A stretch of DNA of 64,000 nucleotides from NCBI GenBank assembly GCA_963782945.1, contig CAWALO010000021.1, forward strand, positions 75,156 to 139,155, read 5' to 3'. This document shows positions 626 through 62,561 of this stretch, in pieces (position 1 is the first letter of the stretch; every line of letters starts with the position of its first letter). The notes under the pieces are model-generated. The model ran no database searches. It was not told the origin of the DNA and worked only from the letters and a program-made list of their open reading frames with translations. This DNA comes from an uncultured Bacteroidales bacterium (GTDB lineage: Bacteria > Bacteroidota > Bacteroidia > Bacteroidales > VadinHA17). A program made the position numbers and the translations under genes.

Positions 626-2119
626 TCATGGCATTGAGGGTAAACTCCATCCTTCACGGTAATTATGTTTAATATACTTCTCTGCGCTTTCAAGGGCATT
701 GAAAGTTTCATATTTCTTGTCAAACGTGGGATGGCCATCAACAACTTTAAAATCGTCGGTGATCATTATTTTCAATTCCTCTGTCACCGAGATATTGGTG
801 AACTTCATGTTTTCACCATCCCACTCGAGAGCCTTACTAAGACCCTGGAGCCTGACTGCCAGAACTCCCATCATAACCATTTCGTTGAATGGTCCGGCGT
901 AAGCAAAATTTGCAGAGCCTTCGGTCCTGCTTTCAGGTGATTCCTTGCATGCCCTTATCCAATCCTGTTCGTGAGGTCCATCCGGATAAAATGTATCTCC
1001 ACCAGGAACACGTCGCAAATATGGCTTGACAACCGGCACTCTTCCTGACATCAGACGCGGGTTATATCCTCCGCAGCCGCACAAGAGGGCATCTTTCGAA
1101 CCGATAAACAGGCATCCCCCGAGTCCGTCAGCCATCAGGTTTTCACCCTGGGGAAGCAGATCTGTCAGGTTTGGAAGCAAGCCTCCGTCGTACCAGTGTA
1201 CTTTCACCATGGGCAGGGCCAGCTTCGGCATGTTATCCCGGGCCGGAAAGAAGAATTCAACAGTCTCAGCCTGAGGGGCAGATTCGGTATTTATTGAGGT
1301 TGAACTACCCCGTACCTTATCAGGATAACCAAGCTTTAAAGATCTGTAAACAGGATCAAGGACGTGGCAGGCCATATCTCCGAAAGCTCCTGTACCGAAA
1401 TCCCACCATCCCCTCCAGTTCCAGGGCGTATATATTTCGTTGAATGGGCGAACGGGTGCCGGGCCCATGAACAAATCCCAGTTTAGCGTTTTTGGAACAG
1501 GCATAACCTTTGCAGGTCTTGGAATACCCTGCGGCCATATTGGACGGTCAGTCCAGGCATGAACCTCACGTATTTCACCTATTTCATTATTCCATATCCA
1601 CTCGCACAGTTTCCTGACATCATCATGCGAATTACCCTGGTTGCCCATCTGTGTGGCAACCTTATGTTTAGCAGCCAGTTTAGTAAGCAGGCGGGATTCA
1701 TAAACCGAGTGGGTAAGAGGCTTCTGACAATAAACATGCTTGCCAAGAGTAAGTGCCGTTGCAGCTATAGGTGCATGGGTATGATCAGCAGTGGCCACCA
1801 TTACACCGTCGATTGATTTTCCAAGCTCATCGAACATCCTTCGCCAGTCCCAGTAGCGTTTTGCTCCCGGAAATTCCTTAAAGCAGAGGTCCGCATATTT
1901 CCAGTCTACATCGCACAAACCAATAATGTTCTCTGTTGCCATCCCCTTCAGATTGACATGCCCCTTGCCTCCTATTCCGACTCCTGCAATATTCAGCTTG
2001 TCGCTTGGAGCTTTATGTCCGAGACCGCTTATAACATGATTCGGCAGAATTGAAATGCCGGCAGATACAAGTCCGGCTTTTTTAAGAAATTCACGCCGTG
2101 TATTACCACTGTTTTTCAT
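626..2119 (-). CDS. Gfo/Idh/MocA-family NAD(P)-dependent oxidoreductase with twin-arginine (Tat) leader
   Basis: 497 aa. The N-terminus MKNSGNTRREFLKKAGLVSAGISIL has an RR-x-F-L-K motif plus a hydrophobic region. Rossmann start is LNIAGVGIGGKG. It is a clear paralog of 47644..49002, sharing the SGLGH.APSDKLNIA and EWIRACK blocks. Confidence 0.85.
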   Translation of the reverse strand: MKNSGNTRREFLKKAGLVSAGISILPNHVISGLGHKAPSDKLNIAGVGIGGKGHVNLKGMATENIIGLCDVDWKYADLCFKEFPGAKRYWDWRRMFDELGKSIDGVMVATADHTHAPIAATALTLGKHVYCQKPLTHSVYESRLLTKLAAKHKVATQMGNQGNSHDDVRKLCEWIWNNEIGEIREVHAWTDRPIWPQGIPRPAKVMPVPKTLNWDLFMGPAPVRPFNEIYTPWNWRGWWDFGTGAFGDMACHVLDPVYRSLKLGYPDKVRGSSTSINTESAPQAETVEFFFPARDNMPKLALPMVKVHWYDGGLLPNLTDLLPQGENLMADGLGGCLFIGSKDALLCGCGGYNPRLMSGRVPVVKPYLRRVPGGDTFYPDGPHEQDWIRACKESPESRTEGSANFAYAGPFNEMVMMGVLAVRLQGLSKALEWDGENMKFTNISVTEELKIMITDDFKVVDGHPTFDKKYETFNALESAEKYIKHNYREGWSLPSMP

Positions 2120-2139
2120 ATTAAAGGCTATAATAGAAT

Positions 2140-2901
2140 CTAAATTTCCTTAATCTTAATGGAACGATACCAGACTTTGGTTCCATGGTTCTGAAGAGAT
2201 ATGTAGCCTTCATCAAATTTACCCCAGTCAGGGAAGGCTGTCCATTTGCCACTGTTTTTCAACTTATTCCATTCATCAGAGTACTTCTCATATTTCACTA
2301 CTATCTGACCATTCAGAATCTGTGTCACTGAATTACCATTTACAACAAGAAACAGCTGGTTCCATTCCCCGAGAGGTTTATATGGCTTTGCCATAGGAGG
2401 ATACATTGCATAGTTAGCACCATTGATTTGCCATTCCTCAAGCTTGTCAGTCCAGTTCTCATGGTCAATAACCTGAAATTCCGGACCAGTTTCATAGGGG
2501 AATTTGTATTTCGGATCCTCTGCAATCTGATAAATGATCCCGCTGTTGGCTGCCTTTGTCAGCTTGTATTCAACGCTCAATGCAAAATTACGGTACTTTT
2601 TGCTGGTCAGAATATCAAGACTCTCAGCAGAACCTGTTGTTGTCATAGTTAAAGATCCATCTTCAATAGCCCAGCAGTCAGGAAATACCTTCATATTATA
2701 TCCATGCCAGCCATCAGTTGTTTTTCCATCGAAAAGCAACTGCCAGCCATTCTTCTTTTCAGCCGACGATAATGTGTTTGGAGAGTCTTTCTTATCTATT
2801 TCAGAATAAAGACCCAGTGCATCTTTTGTCTGTTTCTGGACGAATGCGACAATTATTACCATCATTATTAATACCAATACGCCTGATGTTAACTTTTTCA
2901 T
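2140..2901 (-). CDS. Secreted DUF1080 protein (PF06439, the 3-keto-disaccharide hydrolase family)
   Basis: 253 aa with an N-terminal signal/TM segment. GWQLLFDGKTTDGWHGYN, WAIEDGSLT, EFQVIDHENW and the C-terminal ISLQNHGTKVWYRSIKIKEI match the DUF1080 pattern as I remember it. Confidence 0.8.
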   Translation of the reverse strand: MKKLTSGVLVLIMMVIIVAFVQKQTKDALGLYSEIDKKDSPNTLSSAEKKNGWQLLFDGKTTDGWHGYNMKVFPDCWAIEDGSLTMTTTGSAESLDILTSKKYRNFALSVEYKLTKAANSGIIYQIAEDPKYKFPYETGPEFQVIDHENWTDKLEEWQINGANYAMYPPMAKPYKPLGEWNQLFLVVNGNSVTQILNGQIVVKYEKYSDEWNKLKNSGKWTAFPDWGKFDEGYISLQNHGTKVWYRSIKIKEI

Positions 2902-2931
2902 TTCTTTTGATTTTTCTGGTTAATATACCTG

Positions 2932-4407
2932 TTATTTAATAATAAGCTGATTACCCGTTGCTTTGGCGATCGCTCTTACGCCGGTATTTCCACCCTGGGT
3001 CAGACTGATATCGACCTTAGCATTTGTCTTGTAAGCGCCGCATGTAAAATCAGGAACGGTGATGGAATTTGAACGGTTAGCCACCGACCATTCGCTCAGT
3101 GGGGCAATGCTGCTCCAGAGTGCTCCGTCGTAAACATTCTCATCAAGAGGCAAACCATTACGTAAACAATCAATAAGTCGCCAGTCCATCATGAAATCCA
3201 TACCTCCGTGTCCGCCGACCTTCTTCGCCAGTTCGCCAATGCGTTTAACAATCTCAGGGGTATACTCTTTCTCAATTTCAGCCATTCTGGCCTCATCAAA
3301 CCATTCATGACCCGATGCAATTTTTCCAGGTTCAGGATATTTACATGCGATCCCTTTGGTTCCGCTGAGCAGATGAATACGGGAATATGGACGGGGGGAA
3401 GTAACGTCATGCTGAATCATTATAGTCTTGCCCTTTTCAGTTCTGACAGTTGTGGTGCTCATGTTTCCCCGATAACCGTTTGTTACGAATTCTTTATAGA
3501 ATGTATCGTTTTTGGCAAGCTCTGCTGCCATGTCTGCCATCTGAAAATCATTAGTAGCAACAGTTGTAAGATAATCCATCCTATCACCCCTGTTTATGTC
3601 CAATGCCTGGCAAACAGGTCCCAGTCCATGGGTCGGATAGAGGTTCCCCTTCCTGTGCTGGTTATGCTTCAGGCGCCACATATCAACATAGCCGTTTTTA
3701 TCAAAATTCAAATCTCTCAGATCATGAATATAAGCAGCTTCAGCGTGTATAATTTCCCCGAAAAAGCCCTGGCGGGTCATGTTTAATGTAAGCAATTCAA
3801 AGAAATCGTAGCAGCAATTCTCAAGCATCATGCAATGCTTCTTAGTCTTTTCTGATGTTTCAACAAGCTGCCAGGCCTCATCTATTGTAACAGCAATAGG
3901 CACTTCGGAGGCAGCGTGCTTGCCATTCTCCATCGCAAATACTGCCATAGGAGTATGCCACTCCCATGGAGTGCAGATATAAACAAGGTCAAGTTCATTG
4001 CTCTGGCATAATTCCTTCCATATTTCGGGAGAGCCTGTGTAAGCTTTGGCCGGGGGTAAACCATGAGCTTCAAGTATTTTCTGACCTTTCTCAATCCTGT
4101 CGGGCAGCTTGTCACACAAAGCTTTAATTTCGACACCCTCAATACTGGCAAGCCTCTCCACAGCGCCTGGTCCGCGCTGGCCCAATCCTATTACGCCAAC
4201 ACGCACAATGTCAATTTTAGGAGCGGCATAACCGCTCATATTAAACACCTGGCTGTGAGATCTGTTGGCAGCCTCTTCAATCGCTGCAAATGGACCTGCA
4301 GGCTTGACTTTTTCCTTTGAAACACAAGCATTAAAAGCAGTTCCGGAGACTAATCCAGCACCGGCAACGCCGGCAATTTTAAAAAAACTTCGTCGGTTGG
4401 TTTTCAT
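2932..4407 (-). CDS. GH109-like NAD-dependent glycosidase (alpha-N-acetylgalactosaminidase family, Gfo/Idh/MocA fold) with Tat leader
   Basis: 491 aa. Leader is MKTNRRSFFKIAGVAGAGLVSG. Blocks TPWEWH, LENCCYD, GNLYPTHGLGP, DINRGDR, GGHGGMDFMM and PLDENVYDGALWSSIAPLSEWS...VPDFT line up with the Elizabethkingia GH109 enzyme as I recall it. Confidence 0.85.
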   Translation of the reverse strand: MKTNRRSFFKIAGVAGAGLVSGTAFNACVSKEKVKPAGPFAAIEEAANRSHSQVFNMSGYAAPKIDIVRVGVIGLGQRGPGAVERLASIEGVEIKALCDKLPDRIEKGQKILEAHGLPPAKAYTGSPEIWKELCQSNELDLVYICTPWEWHTPMAVFAMENGKHAASEVPIAVTIDEAWQLVETSEKTKKHCMMLENCCYDFFELLTLNMTRQGFFGEIIHAEAAYIHDLRDLNFDKNGYVDMWRLKHNQHRKGNLYPTHGLGPVCQALDINRGDRMDYLTTVATNDFQMADMAAELAKNDTFYKEFVTNGYRGNMSTTTVRTEKGKTIMIQHDVTSPRPYSRIHLLSGTKGIACKYPEPGKIASGHEWFDEARMAEIEKEYTPEIVKRIGELAKKVGGHGGMDFMMDWRLIDCLRNGLPLDENVYDGALWSSIAPLSEWSVANRSNSITVPDFTCGAYKTNAKVDISLTQGGNTGVRAIAKATGNQLIIK

Positions 4408-4430: not shown

Positions 4431-5591
4431 TTAAATTTTAATAAAAGTTTTATTCCTGTACATATACCTGAGTATAATATATAATATCAGAGTTGCCCCG
4501 AAGATGCTCAGCACATCAAACCAGTTTCCAATAAATGGTTTCAAGCCATTCAGGAAAACTTCAGCCATGCCTGAGAAGTTGTTGCTGAACAGGTGATATG
4601 CAACATAGGCAAAAATTGAATTAGATCCAATAATAATCATCCATTTTGTGCCTTTCCTGATATTCCACACATCTATTACCAGATAAAAAACTGCGAGCAT
4701 CAGGCAGCTTATCCCTCCTGAAAAGAGCACAAAAGAGCTTGTGAAAATATGTTTTATAATCGGATGCCAGATGTTAATGATCAAGCCAAGAACAATAATT
4801 GAAGTCCCAAATATCATATAATTCCAGAACCTCTTCATCTTTTCCTGTTCATACTGCATAATGTATCCGGCAAAAACCCCCAACATTACCAAAGACCCAA
4901 AATTCAGACTTGACACTATCCATGTATAAGTACCCCCGGCTATAAATCGCCCCATCACGGCCTTTTCAACAATTATTGCCACATTTCCATCAGGGGTATA
5001 TGCATTTGCAGTTGTGCCTCCAACGGGAATCAGCCCGAGTATCAGCCAATAAAGCACAAGAAGCCCTGTCGTTGACGCAATCTGATATACAACAGGCAGG
5101 TAAAGAATAAACACAGTAGCGATTAAATAACCGGCTGCAATGGACTGAAGTGTATTAGTAAAAAATTTAATCTGATTAATATCGTAAGTCAGCAGGTTTC
5201 CCTGAACCATCATCCCAAGGATCCAGAGAAGGATCACTCTTTTAATTGTATGCATCCATATTGACCTGTCGGAAGTGGCAGTGCCTAGCCTTTTCCTGTA
5301 TGAATAGACCATAGAGAAGCCTACAAGAAACAGGAAGAGAGGCATAATGATATCTTCAAAATGGAAACCAAACCATTCCACATGGTCAAATTGCATTTTG
5401 ATAAATCCTGACAGCTTATTGTGAAAGACTTTATCAAGCGCCTGAAATCCAATATCACCTCCAATTATCCAGAACATATCGAATCCTCTCAATGCATCCA
5501 CAGAAATCACTCTCTCTTTGGAGAGTATTGTTCTGTTTCTGACCTGCAATACCTCTATGTCACTGAAAAACTTTTTAATTCGTGCATTCAT
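4431..5591 (-). CDS. Polytopic membrane acyltransferase-like protein (DUF5009/DUF1624, heparan-alpha-glucosaminide N-acetyltransferase-like)
   Basis: 386 aa, strongly hydrophobic throughout. The N-terminal RVISVDALRGFDMFWIIGG is the signature start of the HGSNAT-like family. Confidence 0.7.
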   Translation of the reverse strand: MNARIKKFFSDIEVLQVRNRTILSKERVISVDALRGFDMFWIIGGDIGFQALDKVFHNKLSGFIKMQFDHVEWFGFHFEDIIMPLFLFLVGFSMVYSYRKRLGTATSDRSIWMHTIKRVILLWILGMMVQGNLLTYDINQIKFFTNTLQSIAAGYLIATVFILYLPVVYQIASTTGLLVLYWLILGLIPVGGTTANAYTPDGNVAIIVEKAVMGRFIAGGTYTWIVSSLNFGSLVMLGVFAGYIMQYEQEKMKRFWNYMIFGTSIIVLGLIINIWHPIIKHIFTSSFVLFSGGISCLMLAVFYLVIDVWNIRKGTKWMIIIGSNSIFAYVAYHLFSNNFSGMAEVFLNGLKPFIGNWFDVLSIFGATLILYIILRYMYRNKTFIKI

Positions 5592-27486: not shown

Positions 27487-27505
27487 ATCAATAAAAACAA
27501 TTAAA

Positions 27506-28786: not shown

Positions 28787-28804
28787 CTATTAATAACAAG
28801 AGTC

Positions 28805-36585: not shown

Positions 36586-36592
36586 TTAAATT

Positions 36593-36674
36593 AGTTTCCC
36601 AATGGTCGCCTTGAAATGGTAACTGTGGCAGGTTCTGCAGATACCGACATTTTCATGCTTTACCTGGTATTTTG
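36593..36674 (+). repeat. Truncated duplicate of 35972..36446 (cupin fragment joined to a copy of 36416..36446)
   Basis: 36593..36638 matches 35972..36017. 36645..36674 (acattttcatgctttacctggtattttg) matches 36416..36446 (acatttttatgaagtacctggtattttg). About 400 nt present in the first copy is missing in between. Confidence 0.7.
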
Positions 36675-36675
36675 C

Positions 36676-37068: not shown

Positions 37069-37087
37069 ATGTATGTTTGCTCCCGAT

Positions 37088-39247: not shown

Positions 39248-39342
39248 GGCATTATGTTTAAGGCAATGTAGCTAAATTTTCACTAATTTCAATTGAAATA
39301 ACATGATTTTTCAAAGAACTGAGCCTGAACATTTTTTTATTT

Positions 39343-39382
39343 ACCACGGATTACACGGAGAACACAGAGAACACACGGATTA
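39343..39382. repeat. One-armed word repeat (cacggat/cacggag/cacagag units), related to 58068..58169
   Basis: accacggattacacggagaacacagagaacacacggatt. I see no complementary arm nearby. It lies 41 nt after the stop of 39423..41840. Confidence 0.55.
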
Positions 39383-39422
39383 AATTTCCGGCAGGAGGTT
39401 TCTAATCTTAGTTTAAAGAAAT

Positions 39423-41840: not shown

Positions 41841-41953
41841 AACTTATGGAATTAAGGGGGATTGTTTATTAAATCAATTTTTATCGGTTTTTATCTTCTT
41901 AAATAATCACACTTAAAAGACAGAAAAAAAACGTTTCCGCTGCAAATAAATAA

Positions 41954-53973: not shown

Positions 53974-54064
53974 AATATCCAAATAAGGTAAATGGTGAAA
54001 AAAGTACTCCAAATTAAGAAAAATTAAGTAGGTTTGATACAGAAATCACTAAATCAGATCCGCA

Positions 54065-55468
54065 ATGTCATCAAAAACAACCCGCCGTTCATTTCTTGCC
54101 CAGACAGGCATGATATCCGCAGGGATCACCCTGGGCGTAAATCCTTTAAGTGCAGCCAGCTATAACAGGATAAAAGGGGCCAATGAAAAGATCCGGGTAG
54201 GTTTCATTGGTGTCGGAAATCGGGGAACCCAACTCCTGAATATCTTTATGGATCAGCCTGATGTTGAAATTGCAGCATTATGTGACGTTTATGAACCGTA
54301 TATTAACCGTGACCGTTCCAGGGTTGATCCAAGATATATCAAAGACAGACCCGGACAGATCCCGGAAATGGGAGAATCTTTTCCGAATAAGGTCGAAAGA
54401 TATTCTGACTACAGGAAGTTACTGGAAAACAAGACTATAGATGCTGTATGCATAGCAACACCTGACCACTGGCATGCACTTATGACTATCGATGCAATAA
54501 ACGCAGGTAAAGATGTTTATATAGAGAAACCTCTTTCAAAGACTATCCATGAAGGCAGAGCAATGGTAAATGCCGGTAAGAACAGCAAACAAATTGTGAC
54601 CGTAGGGCTGAACAGGCGGGGTGCTCCCACTTTTCAGAAGCTTGCTAAGGATATTCCTTCAGGGAAGATAGGAAAAGTTACATATACGAGCGCATGCCAT
54701 GTAGGTAACATGTTTCCTTCAGGCATAGGTAAACTGAAACCGGAAAATCCTCCAAAAGATTTCAACTGGGATGCCTGGCTGGGTCCACGGGCCTTCAGGC
54801 CATATCAATATAACATAGCTCCGTATATGTTCCGGTGGTGGGAAGATTATTGCAATCAGATCAGTAATCAGGGCGTTCATTATCTCGATCTGATCAGGTG
54901 GCTGCTCAACGAAGAGGCTCCTGCAGCCGTAAGTGCGATGGGAGGGAAATATGCAGTAGATGATGACCGTACCATTCCGGATACCTTTCAGGTTACCTAT
55001 GAATTTGCTTCAGGATCTATAGCTACAGTAAAAGTTTTAGAGGCAAGCTCAGGCAGTTTCATTCCGTATGGTTTCATTGAAATGCGTGGAACTAAAGGGA
55101 CACTTTATACAAATGAAAATGATTATAAGATTGTTCCTGCCAGTCCCGGGCAATTCCAAAGCTGGGATAAACTTATGGAAGCTGAAGAATATAGCCTGGA
55201 GACAAAGGACACCCTCCTTGCAGACAATAGTTATCTCAACAGCACTGCAAACCTCATCCGTAATTTCCTCGATTGTATAAAATCACGGGAAACACCATTT
55301 TCAACCCTGGAAACCGGACATCGCTCGACCTCTCTCGCTCATATGGCTACAATTTCAATGTTAACAAAACAGAGGCTGGAATGGGATCCGGCAAAGGAAC
55401 GTTTCACCAACTCAGAAGAGGCCAATAAGATGCTGCATTATGAGTACCGGAAACCCTATAAATTATAA
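54065..55468 (+). CDS. Gfo/Idh/MocA-family oxidoreductase with Tat leader
   Basis: 467 aa. Leader is MSSKTTRRSFLAQTGMISAGITLG. Rossmann start is VGFIGVGNRG. EKP motif is VYIEKPLS. Confidence 0.85.
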   Translation: MSSKTTRRSFLAQTGMISAGITLGVNPLSAASYNRIKGANEKIRVGFIGVGNRGTQLLNIFMDQPDVEIAALCDVYEPYINRDRSRVDPRYIKDRPGQIPEMGESFPNKVERYSDYRKLLENKTIDAVCIATPDHWHALMTIDAINAGKDVYIEKPLSKTIHEGRAMVNAGKNSKQIVTVGLNRRGAPTFQKLAKDIPSGKIGKVTYTSACHVGNMFPSGIGKLKPENPPKDFNWDAWLGPRAFRPYQYNIAPYMFRWWEDYCNQISNQGVHYLDLIRWLLNEEAPAAVSAMGGKYAVDDDRTIPDTFQVTYEFASGSIATVKVLEASSGSFIPYGFIEMRGTKGTLYTNENDYKIVPASPGQFQSWDKLMEAEEYSLETKDTLLADNSYLNSTANLIRNFLDCIKSRETPFSTLETGHRSTSLAHMATISMLTKQRLEWDPAKERFTNSEEANKMLHYEYRKPYKL

Positions 55469-57028
55469 CTAAGCATACCACTGCCTTTCGCGCTTCAGGT
55501 CTGAATTAAGTATATTATAGGCCAGATTGGCATTTTCAACAACCTGAAAATCAAACATTCCAACACATGCGAAATCGGCTCCGCTGGCAAATGCGTGCCT
55601 GAAGCCCTCTTCCGGTTTTATCGCACCGGCTGCCAGTACTTTATATGCAATCCATGGAGTTGTATTTTCCCTGAAGAAATCGGCAACTACCTTATCCGAC
55701 ATGCACCAGATATTGTCGTGTGCCATATTATGATCATCTCCGTCCACAGGCAGCTCCGGGTTTGCCGGATCAATGGGTGTTGCAGACCAGTAATTATGGC
55801 TGTGAAAGGTTTTCATGTAGAAATCAGGCTTGATCCCATGTTCAATGCAGGTTTTCAGAACCATCATGGAATGAGCAGCGGTTCCGGCAATAAGTCCTTG
55901 CTTCTGAATAAGTTCAACAGGCTTACGAAGAAAATCAATCTGCTTGTCGGTAACAATTTTGTCGGCAATACCTCCCATTACAAACGCACCGATTGCGCCA
56001 TGATCGATAGCAGTCTGAACATTGGACAGATCTTCTCCTTTGGGATATGTTTGCGCCAGCCACTGGACCTTACCTCCCCTTTTCCAGTATTTTTCAAGAA
56101 TCCTAATTGTGTTTTCATCACAACGGAAAATGGCAGTGTTGATGCCGCATGCTTCACACAGCCACAACGTTTCAATCACTTTTTCATCGCTGAAATACTT
56201 TTTAAGCCAGGTGGAAACATAAATTAGGTCGCGTGCATGAGCAAAGCCGCTGATAAGATTCCCGCCGATCATGATCCGGCTAAGGGTTCTTTCTTTAATC
56301 TTACCTGAAGGAACCTGTCCTTTCAGTTCACTTATTGACTGGGACTTTCCCATCAGAAGTGATGCGCTGCTCACAGCATCAGTTTTAGATGCAAGGTTTT
56401 TCTCTTCAAAACTTATCCATCCACGCTTTTTCGCCATCCCGAAAAAGGCAGCTCCGAAAAGTGGTAACACTGCAAGGTTCTTAATCAACTCTCTCCGGGA
56501 AGTGTCATATGATTCAAGTATCTCATGATTATCCTGTGACGGGAACTTTTCATCTTTCCGTTTTTCATGCCAATATGCTGCAAGCCTCTGCATGCCCCAG
56601 AGTGCCTCCTTCCTGAGGGAAGCCAGGGCAATAAGGACAATTGCCTCAATGAGATTGTAATTGAGTATGTAAAAATGACTGGTTGAAGGAATTGTTGAAG
56701 GTACAAACGGAGGATTTGCCACATAGTAAAGCAAAAGAAGCAATGCTCCTGAAATAGCGGCTGGTCTGGTAAACAATCCGACAAACAGGCAAAATCCTAT
56801 TATTATCAATCCCCAGATATTCAGAAAATCAACAATATGCAATGTAGTGCTATTACCAATAAGCCAATGGAAAAACCCTGAAAACAGCCATTTTGATTCC
56901 ATCAGATAAAGTGAGGATGACCAGTTTGGATTAGCCAGCTTGGCCAGGCCTTCATAAAGGAAATGCCAGCCTATTACAATCCTCAGAGCCGAGAGAAGCC
57001 ATATTGTGATACTATTTGTTTTTTTCAT
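55469..57028 (-). CDS. DoxX-like membrane domain fused to an uncharacterised ~340-aa domain
   Basis: Start placed at ATG 57028 (MKKTNSIT...); the track start is a TTG. The N-terminal part ALRIVIGWHFLYEGLAKL plus four hydrophobic segments resembles DoxX. An internal TSRRELIKNLAVLPLFGAAFFGMA segment is followed by a soluble domain that I cannot assign. Confidence 0.6.
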   Translation of the reverse strand: MKKTNSITIWLLSALRIVIGWHFLYEGLAKLANPNWSSSLYLMESKWLFSGFFHWLIGNSTTLHIVDFLNIWGLIIIGFCLFVGLFTRPAAISGALLLLLYYVANPPFVPSTIPSTSHFYILNYNLIEAIVLIALASLRKEALWGMQRLAAYWHEKRKDEKFPSQDNHEILESYDTSRRELIKNLAVLPLFGAAFFGMAKKRGWISFEEKNLASKTDAVSSASLLMGKSQSISELKGQVPSGKIKERTLSRIMIGGNLISGFAHARDLIYVSTWLKKYFSDEKVIETLWLCEACGINTAIFRCDENTIRILEKYWKRGGKVQWLAQTYPKGEDLSNVQTAIDHGAIGAFVMGGIADKIVTDKQIDFLRKPVELIQKQGLIAGTAAHSMMVLKTCIEHGIKPDFYMKTFHSHNYWSATPIDPANPELPVDGDDHNMAHDNIWCMSDKVVADFFRENTTPWIAYKVLAAGAIKPEEGFRHAFASGADFACVGMFDFQVVENANLAYNILNSDLKRERQWYA

Positions 57029-57151
57029 GCAGACATATTTAATCAATCCAAAATCAGTCAAAAGATAATGTCTTCTTGTTATATTTCAAACAAACATGAT
57101 AACTATTACATTTTGATGTGATTCTATTTTATATCTGGCATCAGCCGGTTG

Positions 57152-58039
57152 TTAGTCAAACAGGTGAAGCGGATTCTCAATTACCTTCTCCCTTGTCATA
57201 AGTTTTGGCTGGATTGAAGAGGGTGCTTTTTCAAGCCATTCCTCCTTAACTTTTATGGGTGTTTGCATTATATAAGGCTTACATTTCGGGATTGCAGCAA
57301 TAGACTTTTTTGCACCTTCATAAAGAGCTTTCCGAACCTCTTCAAATGGATAGAGAACAGCTGATTCGCGTGCCAGACCCTGCTTGGTGGCTACTGTCAC
57401 AACACCCTCCCCGAAAAACTTCCTGGCTTCCCGGCAGGCAGCTTCATCACCTGTGACAAGGATTGGAGGTACGCCATAATAACCGGCCACAGAAGCAGAT
57501 TGTGCCAGCTCTCCTGATTCAACACCATTGTACCAGTACCTGTTCTCTGATTCGGAGGATTGGGTATGGCACAAAACTCCATCGGGAGTTCCATTCATTG
57601 CATGGAACCCAAATAAAACCATTCCCGAATAAGATTTATCAAGACTCCAGGTGTTATTTTGAGGTCGTGGCAATCCTGTTACATATTTTGCGCCTGCAAC
57701 CATCAGTTCCGGAATCATTGCCTGGTTCCCATGCCCGTCAATTATCAGTATTTCGGTGGCACCACCATCACGAAGACCTCGAACTACAGCTGCGAGATCT
57801 CCCATGAAATATTCGCATGCCTTGAGATTTTCAGGGCTGCCTTTATCACGTGTCTGCGAAAATCTGTATACGCCGCTGACACCTTCAAGATCCGTTTCAA
57901 TGTAGATCTTTATCTGGGCTGTCAGTGAATCTAATCCTGTTAACAGAATCAGGGTTACAAGAGTAAAAATCTTCAATGCTGATTTCACTATTGATAACAG
58001 GTGAATCTTTTTTGTTAAATCTATTCTCTTCATATTCAA
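57152..58039 (-). CDS. Peptidase M55 (DppA-type D-aminopeptidase) family protein with N-terminal export/anchor segment
   Basis: 295 aa. IYIETDLEGVSGV matches the DppA N-terminal metal-binding block. Here it is preceded by a ~40-aa hydrophobic leader. Confidence 0.7.
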   Translation of the reverse strand: MNMKRIDLTKKIHLLSIVKSALKIFTLVTLILLTGLDSLTAQIKIYIETDLEGVSGVYRFSQTRDKGSPENLKACEYFMGDLAAVVRGLRDGGATEILIIDGHGNQAMIPELMVAGAKYVTGLPRPQNNTWSLDKSYSGMVLFGFHAMNGTPDGVLCHTQSSESENRYWYNGVESGELAQSASVAGYYGVPPILVTGDEAACREARKFFGEGVVTVATKQGLARESAVLYPFEEVRKALYEGAKKSIAAIPKCKPYIMQTPIKVKEEWLEKAPSSIQPKLMTREKVIENPLHLFD

Positions 58040-58184: not shown

Positions 58185-59564
58185 TTATTTTTTAAATGGC
58201 CCCGGAAAGCTTATAAGATCAGTTCTGGTCTTTCCGTTTTCTGTTATTCTTGCCAGGGTATATACTGTACCGTCGTCACCAATTGCAATAGAGTTGACAT
58301 ATAGCGGACGCTGTCCGTCAGGGTAGAAGACAGCACCATTGTCGAGATATTTTCCAGTAGGAATATCATATGTTATCAGATGCAGGTCTTCCAGCCCTTT
58401 TGCCTCTCCCTTTGCAGTCGAGGTTGCCCCCATAACACGCTTACCATCAATGTAAATTGGTCCCCCGGTAAGGTAATAGATTGTCCTTCCGTCGGGCCCC
58501 AGCTTGAAGCCCAGATAACCATAGCTGAACTGGTCGCCCATACCTGTCAGTTTTGAAGGAACAGAGGTTAATCGTTCAAGAACATCTATCCGCTTTATCG
58601 CCGGGTCGAATCTGAACAGGTAACCGGAGTTGCCATGAACGCCATAAATCTTTTTCTCAGGGGCATACCAGAAAACCTGACGCCAGTTATAAGCCATACT
58701 TCCTGAGGTAAATATTTCATATGTCCCGAAGTAGTCCTTCTTCATATCCTCACCTTCTACAGTTTCAACTTGATCACTACCCAGTTGAAGACTTTTTATC
58801 TGACCCTCCGCATTTGTGAAATATACTGAGCCATTATCAGTATCTATTGCAATTGACCGGCATACAACACGAAAATCTTTTCCAAAACCATCTTCCCCCA
58901 TGCCGGTGGCCGGCCCAAGGTCTTTAAGTTCTTTCTTCGCCACATCATACCTGAACAGATATCCTGTCGGCCAGGAAAGGCCGTAGATCAGTCCTCTTGC
59001 CACATCCATATTCATTGTAATAATTCCCTCGTTATGCGGCCCGATTCCCAGATCCTCAAAGGTCTTTGTTTTCATATCGTATGCAAGCAGGTGGCCACCG
59101 CGGTATGCCTTATAATCTCCGGTAGGAAGACCGGTTTTTTCCATTCCGTTTATAATGCTGTAATACCCGAGATGGGTAGCAAAATATAACTTCCCTCCCG
59201 ATTCAACAAAGTTTACATGACTCTTACCCTGGGCCACCACCTTCATATCCTTTTCACCGCATATCTCCGTAAGATCGCCAAGGTGTTCAGTTGTTCCCGT
59301 CTTTGGATCGAAGGAGTACATCTGTCCTGCAATATCCATCAGCTGTGAGCAGAGAACATAATATATCTTTCCGTCGCTGGCAGATGAAATCCCATTATAG
59401 GTATCGTGTGCATGTTCAAAACCTGAATTATAGACTGTGGCAATTATCCGGGCATCAGGAGTTGAGACAGGATCAGTCTTTGCTATTGGTTGCGGAGACT
59501 GGCTGCATGATACTGAAAGTAGTGAGATAAACACCGGAATAATAGAAAGGAATTGTAGCTTCAT
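58185..59564 (-). CDS. Hypothetical beta-propeller-like lipoprotein
   Basis: 459 aa. Lipobox FISLLSVSCS. Recurrent G..Y(F/Y)-type blade-like repeats (GKIYYV, GKLYFAT, GSVYFTN, KKIYGVH, RTIYYLT, GTVYTLA). No family name assigned. Confidence 0.55.
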   Translation of the reverse strand: MKLQFLSIIPVFISLLSVSCSQSPQPIAKTDPVSTPDARIIATVYNSGFEHAHDTYNGISSASDGKIYYVLCSQLMDIAGQMYSFDPKTGTTEHLGDLTEICGEKDMKVVAQGKSHVNFVESGGKLYFATHLGYYSIINGMEKTGLPTGDYKAYRGGHLLAYDMKTKTFEDLGIGPHNEGIITMNMDVARGLIYGLSWPTGYLFRYDVAKKELKDLGPATGMGEDGFGKDFRVVCRSIAIDTDNGSVYFTNAEGQIKSLQLGSDQVETVEGEDMKKDYFGTYEIFTSGSMAYNWRQVFWYAPEKKIYGVHGNSGYLFRFDPAIKRIDVLERLTSVPSKLTGMGDQFSYGYLGFKLGPDGRTIYYLTGGPIYIDGKRVMGATSTAKGEAKGLEDLHLITYDIPTGKYLDNGAVFYPDGQRPLYVNSIAIGDDGTVYTLARITENGKTRTDLISFPGPFKK

Positions 59565-59716: not shown

Positions 59717-61117
59717 TTACATAGCTACCGGTTTGGGGGTCTCATTTCTATTTTTAATCTTTTCAGCATTCTTACGTATTCTTTCAATTGCGGAGGCAAC
59801 ATCATCCAGATCGGATTTTTCAGCCAGAAGCATATTTTGCTGGATCCAAACAGCCTCTACACATAATTCATCGTTTTCCGGACATTCATTTTCAGCTTTG
59901 AATTTTTCAAAATCAAGCATCTCCTTCGGGTACATCTTTTTGAAATTCTTCGATTGGAAAGCATTTTCAAGGTATGGTTGCTTATTCAGGAAGGGAGAAT
60001 ATCCGCTTAAATTTGGAATTCCTTCTGCGGTAAGAGCCTCGAGAAAAAGATCTCTTGATAAACCCTTGAATTCTTCTTTTTTGTAACGGAAACAGAACAT
60101 ATGAAAGGCAGCTCTCGTTACATTATCATAGAGTTTATATGGTCTTATTCCAGGGATACCCTTTATCTGAGACTTCAGGTATGCGGCATTTGTATTCCTC
60201 AGGGAGGTTTGTTCGTCAAGTACACCTAACTGGGCAAGTCCGATAGCTGCCTGATATTCTGTTATGCGGAGCTTAGTGGCAAGCATTACTGAACCGGCAC
60301 CTACTGCACCAATTACTGCTCCATGAGGAAATCCTACATTATGATATGAATAGCACCTGTCCATAAATTCTTCATCATCGCTAACAATTGCTCCTCCTTC
60401 TCCAAGAGGCAGATGTTTGGAATTCTGAAAACTAAAACAGCCCACATTGCCGAATGTCCCTACTTTCTTATTGTCTATTTCTGCCAGCCAGGCCTGGCAG
60501 GCATCTTCTATTACAAGGAGGTTATGCTTCTTAGCTATCTCCATTATTTTCACCATATTGGCTGGCATCCCAAGGATATGAACCGGCATAATCGCCCTTG
60601 TACGGGGGGTGATCTTCGCTTCAATTTTAGCGGGGTCAATCTGATATGTTTCCGGATCCACATCCACAAATACAGGCATTGCTCCGGCAATCAGAACAGC
60701 CTGAATGGTTGAAATCCAGGTATACGGAGTAACAATAACCTCGTCACCAGCTCCTATATCAAGCTGAACAACGGAGGTTATCAGCGCATTAGTGCCGTTG
60801 ACCACCGCCAGGCAGCGCTTTGTACCGATTGTTTCAGCCCATTTATTTTCGAATTCAGTAACTACTTCCGCCCTTGACCAGACTCCGCTTCTGAGAACCT
60901 TAAGCACCTGTTCCTCATACACTTCAGGTTTCCACTGCGGCCATACTGGCCATTCCTTTGTCCTGATCTTCTGTCCGCCAAGGATAGCAGGAACTCCGGT
61001 ATCAGCTGCACAATTGGCAAGAAGTGCCGGCCCTGCACTCAATGCTACTGCTGCACCTATGCCGGCCATTGAATTTTTCTTTACAAATTCACGCCTTGTA
61101 TAATTACTTTTTGACAT
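59717..61117 (-). CDS. DegT/DnrJ/EryC1/StrS-family PLP-dependent aminotransferase with Tat leader
   Basis: 466 aa. Leader is MSKSNYTRREFVKKNSMAGIGAAVALSAG. PLP-lysine context is GCFSFQNSKHLPLGEGGAI. Confidence 0.85.
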   Translation of the reverse strand: MSKSNYTRREFVKKNSMAGIGAAVALSAGPALLANCAADTGVPAILGGQKIRTKEWPVWPQWKPEVYEEQVLKVLRSGVWSRAEVVTEFENKWAETIGTKRCLAVVNGTNALITSVVQLDIGAGDEVIVTPYTWISTIQAVLIAGAMPVFVDVDPETYQIDPAKIEAKITPRTRAIMPVHILGMPANMVKIMEIAKKHNLLVIEDACQAWLAEIDNKKVGTFGNVGCFSFQNSKHLPLGEGGAIVSDDEEFMDRCYSYHNVGFPHGAVIGAVGAGSVMLATKLRITEYQAAIGLAQLGVLDEQTSLRNTNAAYLKSQIKGIPGIRPYKLYDNVTRAAFHMFCFRYKKEEFKGLSRDLFLEALTAEGIPNLSGYSPFLNKQPYLENAFQSKNFKKMYPKEMLDFEKFKAENECPENDELCVEAVWIQQNMLLAEKSDLDDVASAIERIRKNAEKIKNRNETPKPVAM

Positions 61118-61138
61118 ATATTTCAGATTTGATTTATC

Positions 61139-62503
61139 TTATATTGAATTCAGCTTATCCCTGTTATCATATACTTTCATTACTGCGTTTATCAGGTCAT
61201 CCATATCAGCAAGCGATCCAAGAAGCGGACCGGATGCCCATAGCATAACCATTTCATCACACACCTGGTCGCATTTGGGAAGGAACAATTCCTCTTTGAA
61301 TTTTTTCAGACGGGCGTTTCCATACATCTTCTTGTATTCCGGCAATGTCATTATATGATCCGTCCATGGCTCCCTGTGTAATCCGTTAGCTATATATGGG
61401 CTAAGGCCGATACCTTCGGCAGCGATGGCTTTGAAGAATTTTTCACGGGGGGCATTATTGAAAAGTTCCTTTTTATAAGACCATGTATAGAGGTAGAAAG
61501 AACCTGCTGTGGTCCCTTCATAAAGCTTCTGGGGAACAAGGCCCGGGCAGCCCTTTAATTTTTCGGTCAGATACCTGGCATTCCTGTTGCGGATCTCATG
61601 CCGTTCCCTGACACCAGGCAACTGCCCCAGAAGGACAGCTCCTTCAAACTCATTCATCCTGTATTTTGAACCAATGGTAAGTGTCTTCCCGTTTTTTGCA
61701 GTCCCGTGATTCATAACAGTATAACAATTTTCCATCACGTCATCATTATGGCTTACTATTGCACCGCCTTCCCCGCAGCAAAAAACTTTGCTGGTCTGGA
61801 AACTGAAGCATCCTGCATCACCTATGGTTCCAAGCAGTTTACCCTGGTACTCTGCAAGAAAAGCCTGACAGGAATCTTCAATAACTTTAAGATTATATTT
61901 CTTTGCAAGCGCCATAATACTCTGCATATCACAAGGCTGACCCATTATATGTACAGGCATAAGAGCTTTGGTGCGTTTTGTGATCTTTCTTTCCACATCT
62001 GCAGGATCGAGCTGGAATGATTCAGTGTCAAGATCTGCCATAACAGGAAGCGCACGGCTTACCAGTATGCCCTGAATGGTTCCCGGATCGGTATATGGAG
62101 AAGTAATGACTTCGTCACCCGGACCAATGCCAAGTGCCTCAACCACAGTATTCAAAGCCTGCGTACCCGATCCTGTACTCACGCTGGTTTTTGTCCCGTA
62201 GATTTTTGCAAACTCCTGCTCGAATGTCGGCACAGTTCCATTTGGTGATTGGATCCTGCACCAGATACCACTGCGGGTGGTCTTAACAACTTCCTCAACA
62301 ATCCGTTCGTCGACATAGGGCCATTCGGGCCAGACTTTATCTTTGGCAACCGGAGTACCGCCAAGTATTGCCAGTTTGTCAGGATTACCGCTGCCAATGG
62401 TAATATTCCTGAATGCCGGAATATAGCCTGAAGCAGCAACAGCTGCCGAACCGGCAGAGAGAGTTGCAATAAAATTCCGCCTGGAAAAGCTTTTTTTCTT
62501 CAT
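61139..62503 (-). CDS. DegT/DnrJ/EryC1/StrS-family PLP-dependent aminotransferase with Tat leader
   Basis: The track start at 62527 is a TTG. The ATG at 62503 gives MKKKSFSRRNFIATLSAGSAAVAASG. PLP-lysine context is GCFSFQTSKVFCCGEGGAI. It lies 21 nt upstream of its paralog. Confidence 0.85.
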   Translation of the reverse strand: MKKKSFSRRNFIATLSAGSAAVAASGYIPAFRNITIGSGNPDKLAILGGTPVAKDKVWPEWPYVDERIVEEVVKTTRSGIWCRIQSPNGTVPTFEQEFAKIYGTKTSVSTGSGTQALNTVVEALGIGPGDEVITSPYTDPGTIQGILVSRALPVMADLDTESFQLDPADVERKITKRTKALMPVHIMGQPCDMQSIMALAKKYNLKVIEDSCQAFLAEYQGKLLGTIGDAGCFSFQTSKVFCCGEGGAIVSHNDDVMENCYTVMNHGTAKNGKTLTIGSKYRMNEFEGAVLLGQLPGVRERHEIRNRNARYLTEKLKGCPGLVPQKLYEGTTAGSFYLYTWSYKKELFNNAPREKFFKAIAAEGIGLSPYIANGLHREPWTDHIMTLPEYKKMYGNARLKKFKEELFLPKCDQVCDEMVMLWASGPLLGSLADMDDLINAVMKVYDNRDKLNSI

Positions 62504-62561
62504 TTCACCTGATGTTAATAATTTCAATATGTTTAGTTTTTTAATTAGCAGACTGGAAACA

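Follow-up and report, generated by a model that had tools for sequence, protein, structure and literature searches.

Why do ten proteins encoded within one stretch of DNA carry twin-arginine (RR) leaders, and do they serve one pathway? The window, by which we mean the whole 64-kb stretch analysed here, had been read from its sequence as encoding a dedicated periplasmic redox toolkit in place of ordinary hydrolytic glycan breakdown. We examine the leaders, then the genes that surround them, and then what the proteins might do together.

Twin-arginine leaders in the window

The ten open reading frames (ORFs) to which the sequence-only reading had assigned RR leaders are all present in the ORF list at the coordinates it gave (Table 1), and the leaders at their N-termini are borne out by sequence, a chance control, hydrophobicity and conservation. 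The list extends two of them to an upstream TTG (52939..54012 and 61139..62527); if translation begins at the ATG codons at 53973 and 62503, both leaders have a normal length. A near-consensus S/T-R-R-x-F-L-K leader opens each of the ten, with preferred residues beyond the RR (S, T or N at -1, F at +2, K at +4) and 12 or more uncharged residues in a row after the motif. Under our own TATFIND-like rule, Tat leaders are predicted for 10 of the 44 called ORFs (23%), in agreement with the earlier estimate of about one gene in five, and the same rule flags 30 of 4433 internal 35-residue windows from the same protein set (0.7%). The probability of at least 10 hits among 44 is 6e-13 at this background, 1e-8 at 2%, 5e-5 at 5% and 0.01 at 10%. 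The best 12-residue Kyte-Doolittle hydrophobicity lies between 1.2 and 1.8 in the ten leaders and between 2.2 and 3.6 in the 17 Sec or lipoprotein leaders of the window, with no overlap.

The family counts of the earlier reading were also right: Pfam finds six Gfo/Idh/MocA proteins (PF01408 above cut-off in all six), three DegT proteins (PF01041, 285-315 bits) and one DUF362 protein. The Tat-leader paralogues in the window are at most 44% identical and therefore old, which suggests that their leaders were maintained independently. The RR is retained in 38 of 45 large Gfo proteins, 18 of 20 orthologues of the short Gfo protein (GfoS), all four DUF362 proteins and three of four GH109-like proteins in the loci that we fetched, and 118 of 120 homologues of the DegT protein 59717..61117 retain an SRREFVK leader, with the RR conserved across phyla.

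An eleventh protein may belong to this set. In the DoxX fusion, the twin-arginine (residues 189-190, about nt 56492-56497) precedes the last helix, which is weakly hydrophobic and accompanied by KKR, and a globular C-terminal domain follows. Both arginines, R189 and R190, are conserved without exception in all 26 homologues of the fusion, at identities down to 42%. The AF2 model (pLDDT 72.5) contains an 8-stranded barrel, and its best Foldseek match is the aldo-keto reductase 4EXB (E 2.5e-6, TMt 0.71); given the medium confidence of the model and the weak Foldseek E-values, we regard the C-terminal domain as a candidate TIM barrel. The fusion co-occurs with DegT in five other loci, and in aerobic relatives the corresponding position is occupied by a Tat-HiPIP and a DUF7133 protein. 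To judge from the sequences, the Tat set of the window comprises ten enzymes, and probably eleven with the DoxX fusion.

Table 1. Genes of the window discussed in the text, with leaders and family evidence
Position	Strand	Assignment	Leader	Evidence
626..2119	-	Gfo/Idh/MocA, BT2158-family glycoside 3-dehydrogenase	Tat, TRREFLK	NF058561, PDB
2140..2901	-	DUF1080 protein, 3-keto-glycoside lyase/hydratase type	Sec-type	PF06439 3keto-disac_hyd 2e-46
2932..4407	-	GH109-like NAD-dependent glycosidase (predicted)	Tat, NRRSFFK	PF21252 GH109_C 2e-45
4431..5591	-	NagX-like transmembrane glucosamine N-acetyltransferase relative		NF046061
5715..21542	-	Rest of the co-directional polysaccharide-utilisation locus (PUL)		Pfam
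22250..23314	-	DUF362 protein	Tat, SRRNFLK	PF04015 2.7e-28
23339..24688	-	DegT aminotransferase, paralogue 1	Tat, TRRQVIA	PF01041 7e-90; in Tat-DegT clade
47644..49002	-	Gfo/Idh/MocA, BT2158-family paralogue	Tat, SRRGFIE	NF058561
49156..50577	-	SASA-type carbohydrate acetylesterase	Sec	PF03629 5e-17
50760..52154	-	Gfo/Idh/MocA, distant from BT2158	Tat, KRREFIK	8TDF 6e-29; NF058561 140 bits
52939..53973	-	Short Gfo/Idh/MocA (GfoS)	Tat, NRRDFVK	TIGR01409 TAT_signal 19.3 bits, cut-off 16.7
54065..55468	+	Gfo/Idh/MocA, distant from BT2158	Tat, TRRSFLA	8TDF 8e-29
55469..57061	-	DoxX membrane domain with C-terminal TIM barrel (predicted); candidate eleventh Tat-dependent protein	Internal twin-arginine
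57152..58039	-	M55 (DppA-like) D-aminopeptidase family	Sec	PF04951 4e-56
58185..59564	-	Lipoprotein beta-propeller (Prop)		Lipobox LLSVSC
59717..61117	-	DegT aminotransferase, paralogue 2	Tat, TRREFVK	PF01041 1e-93
61139..62503	-	DegT aminotransferase, paralogue 3	Tat, SRRNFIA	PF01041 1e-84
62562..63953	-	Ceramidase-fold amidase (Cer)	Sec	PF04734 N-terminal domain 3e-11

Four gene groups and a recurring DegT cassette

The idea of a single dedicated toolkit does not survive the gene order. The leaders fall into four gene groups. The first closes a SusC/D operon under LacI control, the second pairs DUF362 with DegT, the third is built around Gfo genes, and the fourth is an operon with DegT, amidase and propeller genes; unrelated genes lie in between, for example those for MacB/FtsX efflux at 26-44 kb. 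Nor do the Tat enzymes form a redox set that replaces glycan breakdown, as they lie inside polysaccharide-utilisation loci with GH172 proteins, amidases and esterases. The proposed periplasmic, non-hydrolytic chemistry is supported by family membership in part of the set: 626..2119 scores 857.9 bits against NCBIfam NF058561 (cut-off 750, equivalog level) and matches 8TDF (E 2.6e-204) and 8TDH (E 3.9e-200), and 2932..4407 is GH109-like (6T2B, 1.3e-96; 2IXA, 4e-69; TAT_signal 17.4 bits) and, by its FNAC motif, possibly a lipoprotein. Among the other Gfo proteins, 47644..49002 reaches 521.8 bits against NF058561, below the cut-off, and is 44% identical to 626..2119.

In the first group, the DUF1080 gene (leader Hmax 3.6) immediately adjoins 626..2119, and the NagX-like protein, with six predicted transmembrane segments, scores 193 bits against NF046061, under the cut-off of 480. 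The remaining genes, all on the minus strand and spaced by 0-260 nt, encode two DUF2961/GH172 proteins, a beta-lactamase-fold protein, Amidohydro_2, SusD, SusC, a penicillin amidase, DUF6786 and a LacI regulator. The window contains neither an AL1/BT2156-type sugar-phosphate-isomerase-like lyase nor, as far as we found, a cytosolic AL4/BT2159-type partner; the lack of the lyase counts against the reading that we favour below. The second group, in which both proteins have Tat leaders, recurs in three Rikenellaceae MAG loci. All ten proteins had been taken for cofactor-binding enzymes, and this stands for the NAD(P) and PLP families; for the DUF362 protein we found no PDB relative, no conserved Cys cluster and no other sign of a cofactor.

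The three DegT paralogues of the window all fall inside one supported Tat-DegT clade (23 rows, 19 with leader, SH-like support 97), and leaderless relatives fall outside. The invariant alignment columns include the Lys of SFQ-N/T-SK, presumably the lysine that binds PLP, as well as Asp and Gln in EDACQ (D205, Q208, K234). Among solved structures, Gln:2-deoxy-scyllo-inosose aminotransferases come closest (2e-59), and their substrates are free cyclitols and not nucleotide sugars. No window DegT protein reaches a nucleotide-sugar NCBIfam equivalog, and 61139..62503 reaches no equivalog.

The DegT/amidase/propeller cassette is widespread and unstudied, whereas the Gfo/DUF1080/GH109 part has already been described (Liu 2021, PMC8121099; Nasseri preprint 10.1101/2024.03.25.586180). 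Cassette loci number more than 560 and come mostly from Bacteroidota, with three other phyla contributing a few; the 80 that we kept include Pirellulaceae (3), Fodinibius (Balneolota) and one Aminicenantes MAG. Six Tat proteins and the DoxX fusion, at 47.6-62.5 kb, map onto this one cross-phylum cassette. The propeller, whose AF2 model (pLDDT 83.6) matches generic propellers only, occurs in 45 of 81 DegT loci, 40 times alone and 5 times in a fusion. Cer matches 4WGK (1e-7) and 2ZWS (3e-6) weakly and to the N-terminal domain of neutral ceramidases only. Cer, the fusion or a weakly Cer-like family is present in 47 of 81 loci (Cer itself in 34), Tat-Gfo in 33 and SusC/D in 24. In five genomes Cer and Prop are fused as one ORF, with 52-58% identity to both window proteins. 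GfoS orthologues occur in 20 DegT loci, in nine of which DegT adjoins GfoS, and M55 in seven. Along with M55, the other neighbours of amine-freeing type, judged by family, are PIG-L, sulfamidase-type sulfatase, creatininase and CN-hydrolase; MFS transporter, NagA-like and NagB-like genes lie downstream. The Tat fraction among DegT neighbours in relatives is 15% within 6 kb and falls to 3.3% at 8-10 kb, which indicates local clustering.

A putative amino-sugar pathway and its alternatives

We think it reasonably likely that the window, which belongs to an uncultured Bacteroidales from freshwater or sediment, forms an island for the use of glycans and amino sugars, with NAD(P) and PLP enzymes that work in the periplasm via Tat. 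Plausibly, these enzymes carry Tat leaders because folding and cofactor binding must happen in the cytoplasm. With leaders, families, conservation and synteny observed as above, we infer substrates and reaction direction as follows. In the first group, the BT2158-family dehydrogenase, with NAD tightly bound, would oxidise the C3 hydroxyl of a glycoside, and the DUF1080 enzyme, whose role we take from the Nasseri preprint (10.1101/2024.03.25.586180), would next eliminate the aglycone and hydrate the product; the GH109-type NAD enzyme and the NagX-like N-acetyltransferase would deal with hexosamine residues. In the third and fourth groups, the SASA, M55 and ceramidase-fold proteins and the lipoprotein propeller would free amino groups, and the Tat-DegT enzymes would convert the freed amine into a ketone by transamination. 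The resulting keto sugar might then be reduced by the Tat-Gfo enzymes, or the ketone might activate elimination of the glycosidic bond. The probable function of the cassette is deamination of amino sugars outside the cytoplasm, by putative periplasmic deacylation and transamination. For the transamination step, a keto acid or keto sugar would have to serve as amino acceptor in the periplasm, and we count this requirement against the role proposed for DegT. As to the putative electron route, the DoxX-anchored TIM-barrel domain may link redox steps to the membrane. A further point against this reading is that the four groups could act on unrelated substrates.

The ten leaders could instead be the cargo of several unrelated PULs in a lineage with a Tat-rich secretome, so that their density would be neither local nor the mark of a shared toolkit. 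We consider this possible but the less likely account. The distribution over four groups with unrelated genes between them and the median of three Tat proteins per related 21-kb DegT locus agree with it; however, the Tat fraction drops away from DegT in relatives, the right-hand part of the window fits one cross-phylum cassette, and amino-sugar or amide chemistry (NagX-like, GH109, amidases, DegT) is common to every group.

The chemistry might also run the other way, with Tat-DegT and Gfo enzymes aminating or remodelling the cell's own envelope glycans in the periplasm, as in the cytoplasmic 3-amino-sugar routes of WbpB/WbpE and NtdC/NtdA. Gfo/Idh/MocA and DegT are a classical biosynthetic pair, the PLP residues of DegT are intact, and NtdA and WbpE are among its solved relatives. 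However, the neighbours are SusC/SusD, LacI and GntR regulators of catabolic type, amidases, esterases, an MFS transporter and NagA/NagB-like genes, the surroundings include no glycosyltransferase, flippase or polymerase, and the periplasm lacks nucleotide sugars; a biosynthetic role thus appears improbable. Least credible of all, and very improbable, is that the RR motifs are non-functional, either chance pairs in Sec signals or relics in a Tat-less genome. In tblastn, E. coli TatC matched nothing in the window or in all 81 loci, as expected in so small a sample. Against non-functional motifs stand the consensus beyond the RR in ten independent leaders, h-regions uniformly weaker than those of all Sec leaders of the window, the conservation of the RR in DegT orthologues across phyla, the predicted Tat signals of the BT2158 and AL3 orthologues (PMC8121099; Nasseri preprint 10.1101/2024.03.25.586180), and the generality of tatC in Bacteroidetes, with 45 tatC in 44 genomes (PMC3827258).

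Comparison with known systems

Among the systems closest to the window are the periplasmic oxidation-elimination-hydration pathways BT2156-BT2160 of Bacteroides thetaiotaomicron and AL1-AL5 of Alistipes, in which BT2158 and AL3 combine a predicted Tat signal with tightly bound NAD (PMC8121099; Nasseri preprint 10.1101/2024.03.25.586180). The window has a Tat-leader BT2158 equivalog beside DUF1080 and more distant Tat-leader relatives (47644, 50760 and 54065), and the logic of exporting tightly bound NAD with the folded protein would be shared. Unlike in those pathways, the window genes follow on from a SusC/D operon rich in amidases and GH172, and PLP aminotransferases are present. The GH109-like protein shares the GH109 C-domain, the Gfo Rossmann domain and an export signal with alpha-N-acetylgalactosaminidases (Elizabethkingia NagA, 2IXA; Akkermansia, 6T2B); it is a GH109 candidate by sequence and is paired with the NagX-like N-acetyltransferase.

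The DoxX fusion resembles polytopic membrane proteins with dual Sec/Tat integration (actinobacterial Rieske, the Sco3746 MoCo protein, polyferredoxin and long YkuE; Tooke et al. 2017, PMC5449189) in its RR before a last, weakly hydrophobic helix, its positive charges and its globular C-terminal domain. However, the DoxX family is absent from that study, and the C-terminal domain is a predicted TIM barrel without a recognised cofactor. The scyllo-inosose and L-glutamine:2-deoxy-scyllo-inosose aminotransferases (BtrR, 2C7T/2C81; 5W70/5W71; 7B0D), the closest solved kin of the three DegT proteins, are cytoplasmic, biosynthetic and without leader, whereas the window proteins belong to a Tat-bearing clade in a catabolic context.

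The glucose-fructose oxidoreductase (GFOR) of Zymomonas mobilis is described as Tat-exported with non-dissociating NADP and as working by a redox-neutral ping-pong mechanism in the periplasm (Halbig et al. 1999, as cited in PMC8121099 and PMC13673990). The window Gfo proteins are likewise Gfo/Idh/MocA proteins with Tat leaders, but the similarity is confined to the Rossmann domain (E about 1e-9 to 1e-10), and substrates and gene context differ. For Tat-exported PLP enzymes, the only precedents that we found are PvdN and PtaA, pyoverdine-tailoring enzymes of Pseudomonas exported with their cofactor bound (Ringel et al. 2016/2017, as cited in PMC13673990; PMC6206403). These belong to other PLP subfamilies and to siderophore tailoring, not to the DegT family or to glycan loci. 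By analogy, GFOR, BT2158/AL3 and PvdN/PtaA are precedents for the cofactor-loaded Tat export that we propose here.

Twin-arginine leaders and their conservation

Ten ORFs, comprising six Gfo/Idh/MocA enzymes, three DegT enzymes and one DUF362 protein, had been assigned twin-arginine (RR) leaders in the sequence-only reading. All ten are found in the window and fit the Tat consensus, taken here as S/T-R-R-x-F-L-K within about the first 35 residues and followed by an uncharged h-region. The family calls were upheld by Pfam (six Gfo/Idh/MocA, one of them with a GH109 C-terminal domain, three DegT/DnrJ/EryC1 and one DUF362). In window order the motifs are TRREFLK, NRRSFFK, SRRNFLK, TRRQVIA, SRRGFIE, KRREFIK, NRRDFVK, TRRSFLA, TRREFVK and SRRNFIA, each with an uncharged stretch after it. 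The ORF listing preferred an upstream TTG for two of the genes (52939..54012 and 61139..62527); the ATG starts of the sequence-only reading give leaders of normal length.

Both the simple greedy ORF caller and the custom, TATFIND-like Tat rule are crude, and a chance control was applied. The rule flags exactly these ten among the 44 substantial ORFs of the window, which agrees with the earlier estimate that about one gene in five is predicted to be Tat-targeted. Applied to internal 35-residue segments of similar proteins, the rule fires at a rate of 0.7% (30/4433), so the density of leaders lies far above chance, and also above any plausible genome mean of up to about 5-10%. An internal-start match in the FtsX permease at 39423..41840 was a false positive of the rule and disappeared once start codons were restricted. 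A weaker h-region is the classical difference between Tat and Sec leaders, and the best 12-residue Kyte-Doolittle means are 1.2-1.8 for the ten Tat leaders versus 2.2-3.6 for 17 Sec or lipoprotein leaders of the window, with no overlap. The TAT_signal models match the leaders only weakly, as is usual with such short profiles. One could assume that the leaders were copied in a recent duplication; however, the paralogues in the window are at most 44% identical, which rules out this origin.

The leaders are also conserved among relatives. S/T-R-R-E-F-V-K is kept in 118 of the 120 best homologues of the DegT at 59717..61117 (71-91% identity), the two exceptions being gene calls, one mis-started and the other truncated. 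In orthologues from 81 related loci an RR leader is present in 38/45 large Gfo proteins, 18/20 short Gfo proteins, 4/4 DUF362 proteins and 3/4 GH109-like proteins. A wider search covered 1.84 billion cluster representatives. Its best full-length DegT matches bear Tat leaders, and below about 300 bits leaderless proteins of about 400-420 residues prevail. A FastTree phylogeny of 122 mature DegT domains places the leader-bearing proteins in one supported group of 23 rows, 19 of which have a leader (SH-like support 97). All three window DegTs fall inside this group, each nearest a different representative; they are thus old members of an exported clade.

Several of the Tat leaders have a terminal Cys whose surroundings resemble a lipobox (FNAC in 2932-4407, AATC in 22250-23314, LANC in 59717-61117), and the motif LANC(A/S)(T/A)DTG is widely kept in DegT orthologues. 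These residues hint that some of the products may be Tat-exported lipoproteins. A search for TatC (tblastn and phmmer with an approximate E. coli TatC query) gave no match in the window and the 81 loci, a sample too small to be informative.

The DegT cassette in related loci

Relatives of the DegT were found in at least 561 loci of the species-representative genomes scanned. We kept the best 80, and called and clustered ORFs in 81 related loci. The best 80 include Rikenellaceae, other Bacteroidales, Cytophagales (Dyadobacter, Runella, Larkinella, Nibrella, Arsenicibacter), Prolixibacteraceae, Sphingobacteriales, Chitinophagaceae, Flavobacteriaceae, Fodinibius, Pirellulaceae and one Aminicenantes MAG; the related loci span at least four phyla. 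The partners of the exported DegT are collected in the table, together with other features of the window.

Partners of the Tat-leader DegT in 81 related loci, and further features. Positions are those of the window unless a locus (L) is named; an asterisk marks a Tat leader.
Feature	Position	Strand	Observation
Prop, lipoprotein beta-propeller	58185..59564	-	homologue, alone or in fusion, beside Tat-DegT in 45/81 loci
Cer, predicted ceramidase-fold amidase	62562..63953	-	homologue (alone, fused, or the weakly similar family c7) beside Tat-DegT in 47/81 loci
At least one Tat-Gfo			beside Tat-DegT in 33/81 loci
SusC or SusD			beside Tat-DegT in 24/81 loci
Second DegT			beside Tat-DegT in 19/81 loci
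Cer-Prop fusion	L021:9671-12352
Cer-Prop fusion	L026:11356-14073
Cer-Prop fusion	L031:18689-21355
Cer-Prop fusion	L036:9623-12535
Cer-Prop fusion	L045:11377-14097
DUF7133+HEAT and small HiPIP*	L056 (Runella defluvii):14286-16569		between Prop and large Gfo*; also in L053, L054, L062 and L065, all Cytophagales aerobes
NagX / HGSNAT-type transmembrane glucosamine N-acetyltransferase relative	4431-5591	-	six TM; adjoins GH109-like 2932..4407
DoxX fusion, candidate eleventh Tat-dependent protein	55469..57061	-	four DoxX helices, TSRRELIKNLAVLPLFGAAFFGMAKKRGW, then ~320 residues
PQQ-dependent dehydrogenase lipoprotein	37088-39247	-	inserted cytochrome c domain; Sec/lipoprotein leader
Efflux-type block between the Tat-rich groups	26134-44329		TolC-like, HlyD-like, ABC ATPase, sigma-54-type response regulator, three paralogous FtsX/MacB-type permeases (790-805 aa); only small ORFs at 33.5-37.0 kb

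Cer and Prop are two separate genes in the window. In five loci they are joined in a single ORF of 890-970 residues just downstream of the DegT, whose first half is 52-58% identical to Cer and whose second half is 54-57% identical to Prop. By the Rosetta-stone argument these fusions tie the two proteins functionally. The fullest cassette, found in Runella, Arsenicibacter and Dyadobacter, combines SusC-SusD-GntR with short Gfo*, DegT*, Cer, Prop, DUF7133/HEAT, HiPIP*, large Gfo*, an MFS transporter, and NagA-like and NagB-like proteins. The DUF7133+HEAT and HiPIP proteins are possible electron acceptors for periplasmic dehydrogenases.

The segment at 47.6-64 kb of the window represents this cassette in a rich local form. 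It contains large Gfo*, a SASA esterase, large Gfo*, short Gfo*, large Gfo*, the DoxX fusion, M55, Prop, DegT*, DegT* and Cer, and it encodes six Tat proteins in 21 kb, compared with a median of 3 and a maximum of 7 in 44 full-length related loci. Among the non-DegT ORFs of the 81 loci, the Tat fraction is 15%, 13.5% and 16% in successive 2-kb bins up to 6 kb from the DegT, 9% at 6-8 kb and 3.3% at 8-10 kb. This drop reveals that in the relatives the leaders cluster locally around the cassette.

The closest long-contig relative (L001, 4369-13736; 88% at the DegT protein) contains neither Cer nor Prop. Here the Tat-DegT lies behind SusC/SusD, among four PIG-L family deacetylases and Tat-leader MR_MLE proteins of the enolase superfamily: the same aminotransferase with another set of amine-freeing enzymes around it. 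Other DegT loci add a sulfamidase-type sulfatase, a creatininase-family amidohydrolase, a CN-hydrolase and M55 peptidases. The pair of DUF362* and DegT* at 22-25 kb of the window recurs in three Rikenellaceae MAGs.

The three window DegTs match PF01041 with 285-315 bits. D205 and Q208 (EDACQ) and K234 (SFQ-N/T-SK) are invariant in our DegT alignment, and we take this Lys to be the PLP lysine. The DegTs do not reach any named nucleotide-sugar aminotransferase equivalog in NCBIfam (PseC, LegC, WecE, ArnB, DesI), scoring at best 160-191 bits against cut-offs of 375-650. For Cer, only the neutral-ceramidase N-terminal domain is matched (43 bits in Pfam, 1e-7 to 4WGK), and the protein has 463 residues versus 646-688. 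Cer lacks both the full two-domain architecture of neutral ceramidases and strong similarity to the characterised enzymes; at the level of the fold it is ceramidase-like, but it is not a ceramidase. A lactonase-type propeller identity for Prop likewise finds no support, since Foldseek returns only generic Kelch, WD40 and YncE propellers and the assignment stays at the level of the fold. We also dropped the idea that the DUF362 protein is an Fe-S protein, because four orthologues lack a conserved Cys cluster. Searches of the PDB by sequence gave no match for DUF362, Prop or the DoxX fusion. Pfam at E values up to 1 yielded no useful family for Prop, the C-terminal domain of the DoxX fusion, c7 and the ORFs at 52322 and 4431, beyond a weak ceramidase hint for c7.

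Gfo/Idh/MocA enzymes, the DoxX fusion and redox surroundings

Comparison of the six Gfo/Idh/MocA proteins with characterised glycoside 3-dehydrogenases and GH109 was proposed in the sequence-only reading. The protein at 626..2119 belongs to the BT2158 family: it scores 857.9 bits on NF058561 (BT_2158_fam glycoside 3-dehydrogenase), above the equivalog cut-off of 750, and matches PDB 8TDF/8TDH at E of about 1e-204. The protein at 2932..4407 combines a Gfo Rossmann domain with the GH109 C-terminal domain PF21252 (154.8 bits), matches 6T2B (1.3e-96) and 2IXA (4e-69), and is GH109-like, a putative glycosidase; on NF058561 it scores 32.1 bits. The other four lie below the cut-off. Among these, 47644..49002 is a BT2158-family paralogue (521.8 bits), the proteins at 50760 and 54065 are distant relatives (139.7 and 142.2 bits; 8TDF at about 1e-29), and the short Gfo at 52939..53973 (18.3 bits) has only weak links, to 1,5-anhydrofructose reductase.

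The two Tat enzymes at the start of the window, 626..2119 and 2932..4407 (Group 1, 626-4407), are encoded by the final genes of a co-directional LacI-SusC/D operon whose remaining cargo is two GH172 proteins, a penicillin amidase, a beta-lactamase-fold protein and an amidohydrolase. Only 20 nt from 626..2119 lies 2140..2901, a member of PF06439 (DUF1080, the "3-keto-disaccharide hydrolase" family). The position of the NagX-like protein suggests that free glucosamine residues are re-acetylated ahead of cleavage. For BT2158 itself, Liu et al. proposed a Tat signal and tightly bound NAD(P) (PMC8121099). In the AL/BT pathway, AL3/BT3 oxidises C3, DUF1080 proteins act as lyases and hydratases on 3-keto-glycosides, and reduction of 3-keto-glucose probably recycles the bound NAD, with cytochromes raised as possible re-oxidants of the bound nicotinamide (Nasseri preprint, 10.1101/2024.03.25.586180). 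A sugar-phosphate-isomerase-like lyase of the AL1/BT2156 type was sought through AP_endonuc_2/xylose-isomerase-like Pfam matches, with none among the 30 window ORFs scanned, those other than the SusC, efflux and small ORFs; its gene could lie beyond the window borders. The Gfo/DUF1080/GH109 part is a new member of a known pathway and known families.

The DoxX fusion carries an internal RR motif. In TSRRELIKNLAVLPLFGAAFFGMAKKRGW the RR stands directly before the weakly hydrophobic last (fifth) helix, with positive charges (KKR) after it, and R189 and R190 are invariant in 26/26 aligned homologues, including ones that are 42-56% identical. About 5000 homologues exist, and in five other loci the gene accompanies the DegT. 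The AlphaFold model (mean pLDDT 72.5, above 85 over most of the C-terminal domain) has an eight-stranded alpha/beta barrel, whose nearest Foldseek matches are aldo-keto reductases (4EXB, E 2.5e-6, TMt 0.71), IMPDH and FMN-type barrels; these matches are weak and hold at the level of the fold only.

Another periplasmic redox enzyme, the PQQ-dependent dehydrogenase, is encoded between the Tat-rich groups, and its cytochrome c domain implies a respiratory chain that accepts electrons through cytochrome c.

A proposed periplasmic route and its relation to known systems

NAD(P) and PLP are not expected to be loaded in the periplasm, which argues that the enzymes are exported by Tat as holo-proteins. 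According to a 2026 review, the cofactors that Tat substrates carry include NADP (GFOR) and PLP (PvdN, PtaA) (PMC13673990). The export signals, family memberships, conservation and synteny are observed, and the route that follows is inferred. Group 1 would oxidise glycosides at C3 and cut them by subsequent elimination and hydration. Within the DegT cassette, amines would be exposed by SASA, Cer with Prop, and M55, and in other genomes by PIG-L, sulfamidase or CN-hydrolase. The DegTs would then convert the exposed amine to a ketone, and the keto sugar would either be reduced to an ordinary sugar by Gfo enzymes or be activated by its ketone for elimination. Where the cassette is complete, the products would enter through the MFS transporter and pass to the NagA- and NagB-type enzymes. 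Turnover of the bound nicotinamide may follow the redox-neutral scheme of GFOR and AL3, or it may run through the DoxX-TIM-barrel protein here and through HiPIP and DUF7133 in aerobic relatives.

According to the Nasseri preprint, 3-modified and 3-amino sugars, including aminoglycosides, escape the AL/BT pathway (10.1101/2024.03.25.586180). In our boldest reading the Tat-DegTs extend 3-keto glycoside cleavage to amino sugars, and the DoxX-TIM-barrel proteins form a new dual Sec/Tat family linked to the quinone pool; we consider this combination unlikely. After removal of the N-acyl group by Cer/Prop and amidases, the DegT would transaminate a ring amine of the glycoside (e.g., a 3- or 4-amino group) to the ketone. 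The resulting keto-glycoside, made without oxidation, would be a substrate for DUF1080-type lyases and Gfo reductases and would thereby close that gap, and the DoxX-TIM-barrel protein would link the periplasmic redox steps to the quinone pool.

Accounts of glycan breakdown usually centre on hydrolases and lyases, and recognition of the oxidation-elimination route dates only from 2021-2024 (PMC8121099; 10.1101/2024.03.25.586180). Taken as a whole, our finding is a periplasmic, cofactor-assisted glycan catabolism that appears to be extended by PLP chemistry. DNA nearly identical to parts of the window is present in sediment, freshwater and wetland metagenomes, and the data suggest that soil, freshwater and sediment bacteria export PLP aminotransferases with amidases and NAD enzymes. 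If so, nitrogen could be removed from amino sugars outside the cytoplasm, independently of nucleotides. With confirmation, polysaccharide-utilisation loci (PULs) would gain a class of reaction, and three large uncharacterised families (the Tat-DegTs, the ceramidase-fold amidase and its propeller partner) would receive functions. The result would also be relevant to how sugars of the bacterial cell wall, capsule and O-antigen, and amino-glycoside natural products, are turned over. Further candidates would join the few PLP-carrying Tat substrates and the few dual Sec/Tat membrane proteins.

In the literature we found no description of a Tat-exported DegT, of a DegT in PULs or of the DegT-Cer-Prop cassette, and PvdN and PtaA are the sole precedents that we found for Tat-exported PLP enzymes. 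In membrane proteins integrated by both Sec and Tat, the last helix is weakly hydrophobic, with an RR directly ahead of it and positive charges behind (Tooke et al. 2017, PMC5449189). The DoxX fusion shares this signature, but DoxX is absent from that study, which makes the fusion a candidate for a new family of such proteins. The nearest solved relatives of the window DegTs are glutamine:2-deoxy-scyllo-inosose aminotransferases, whose substrates are nucleotide-free.
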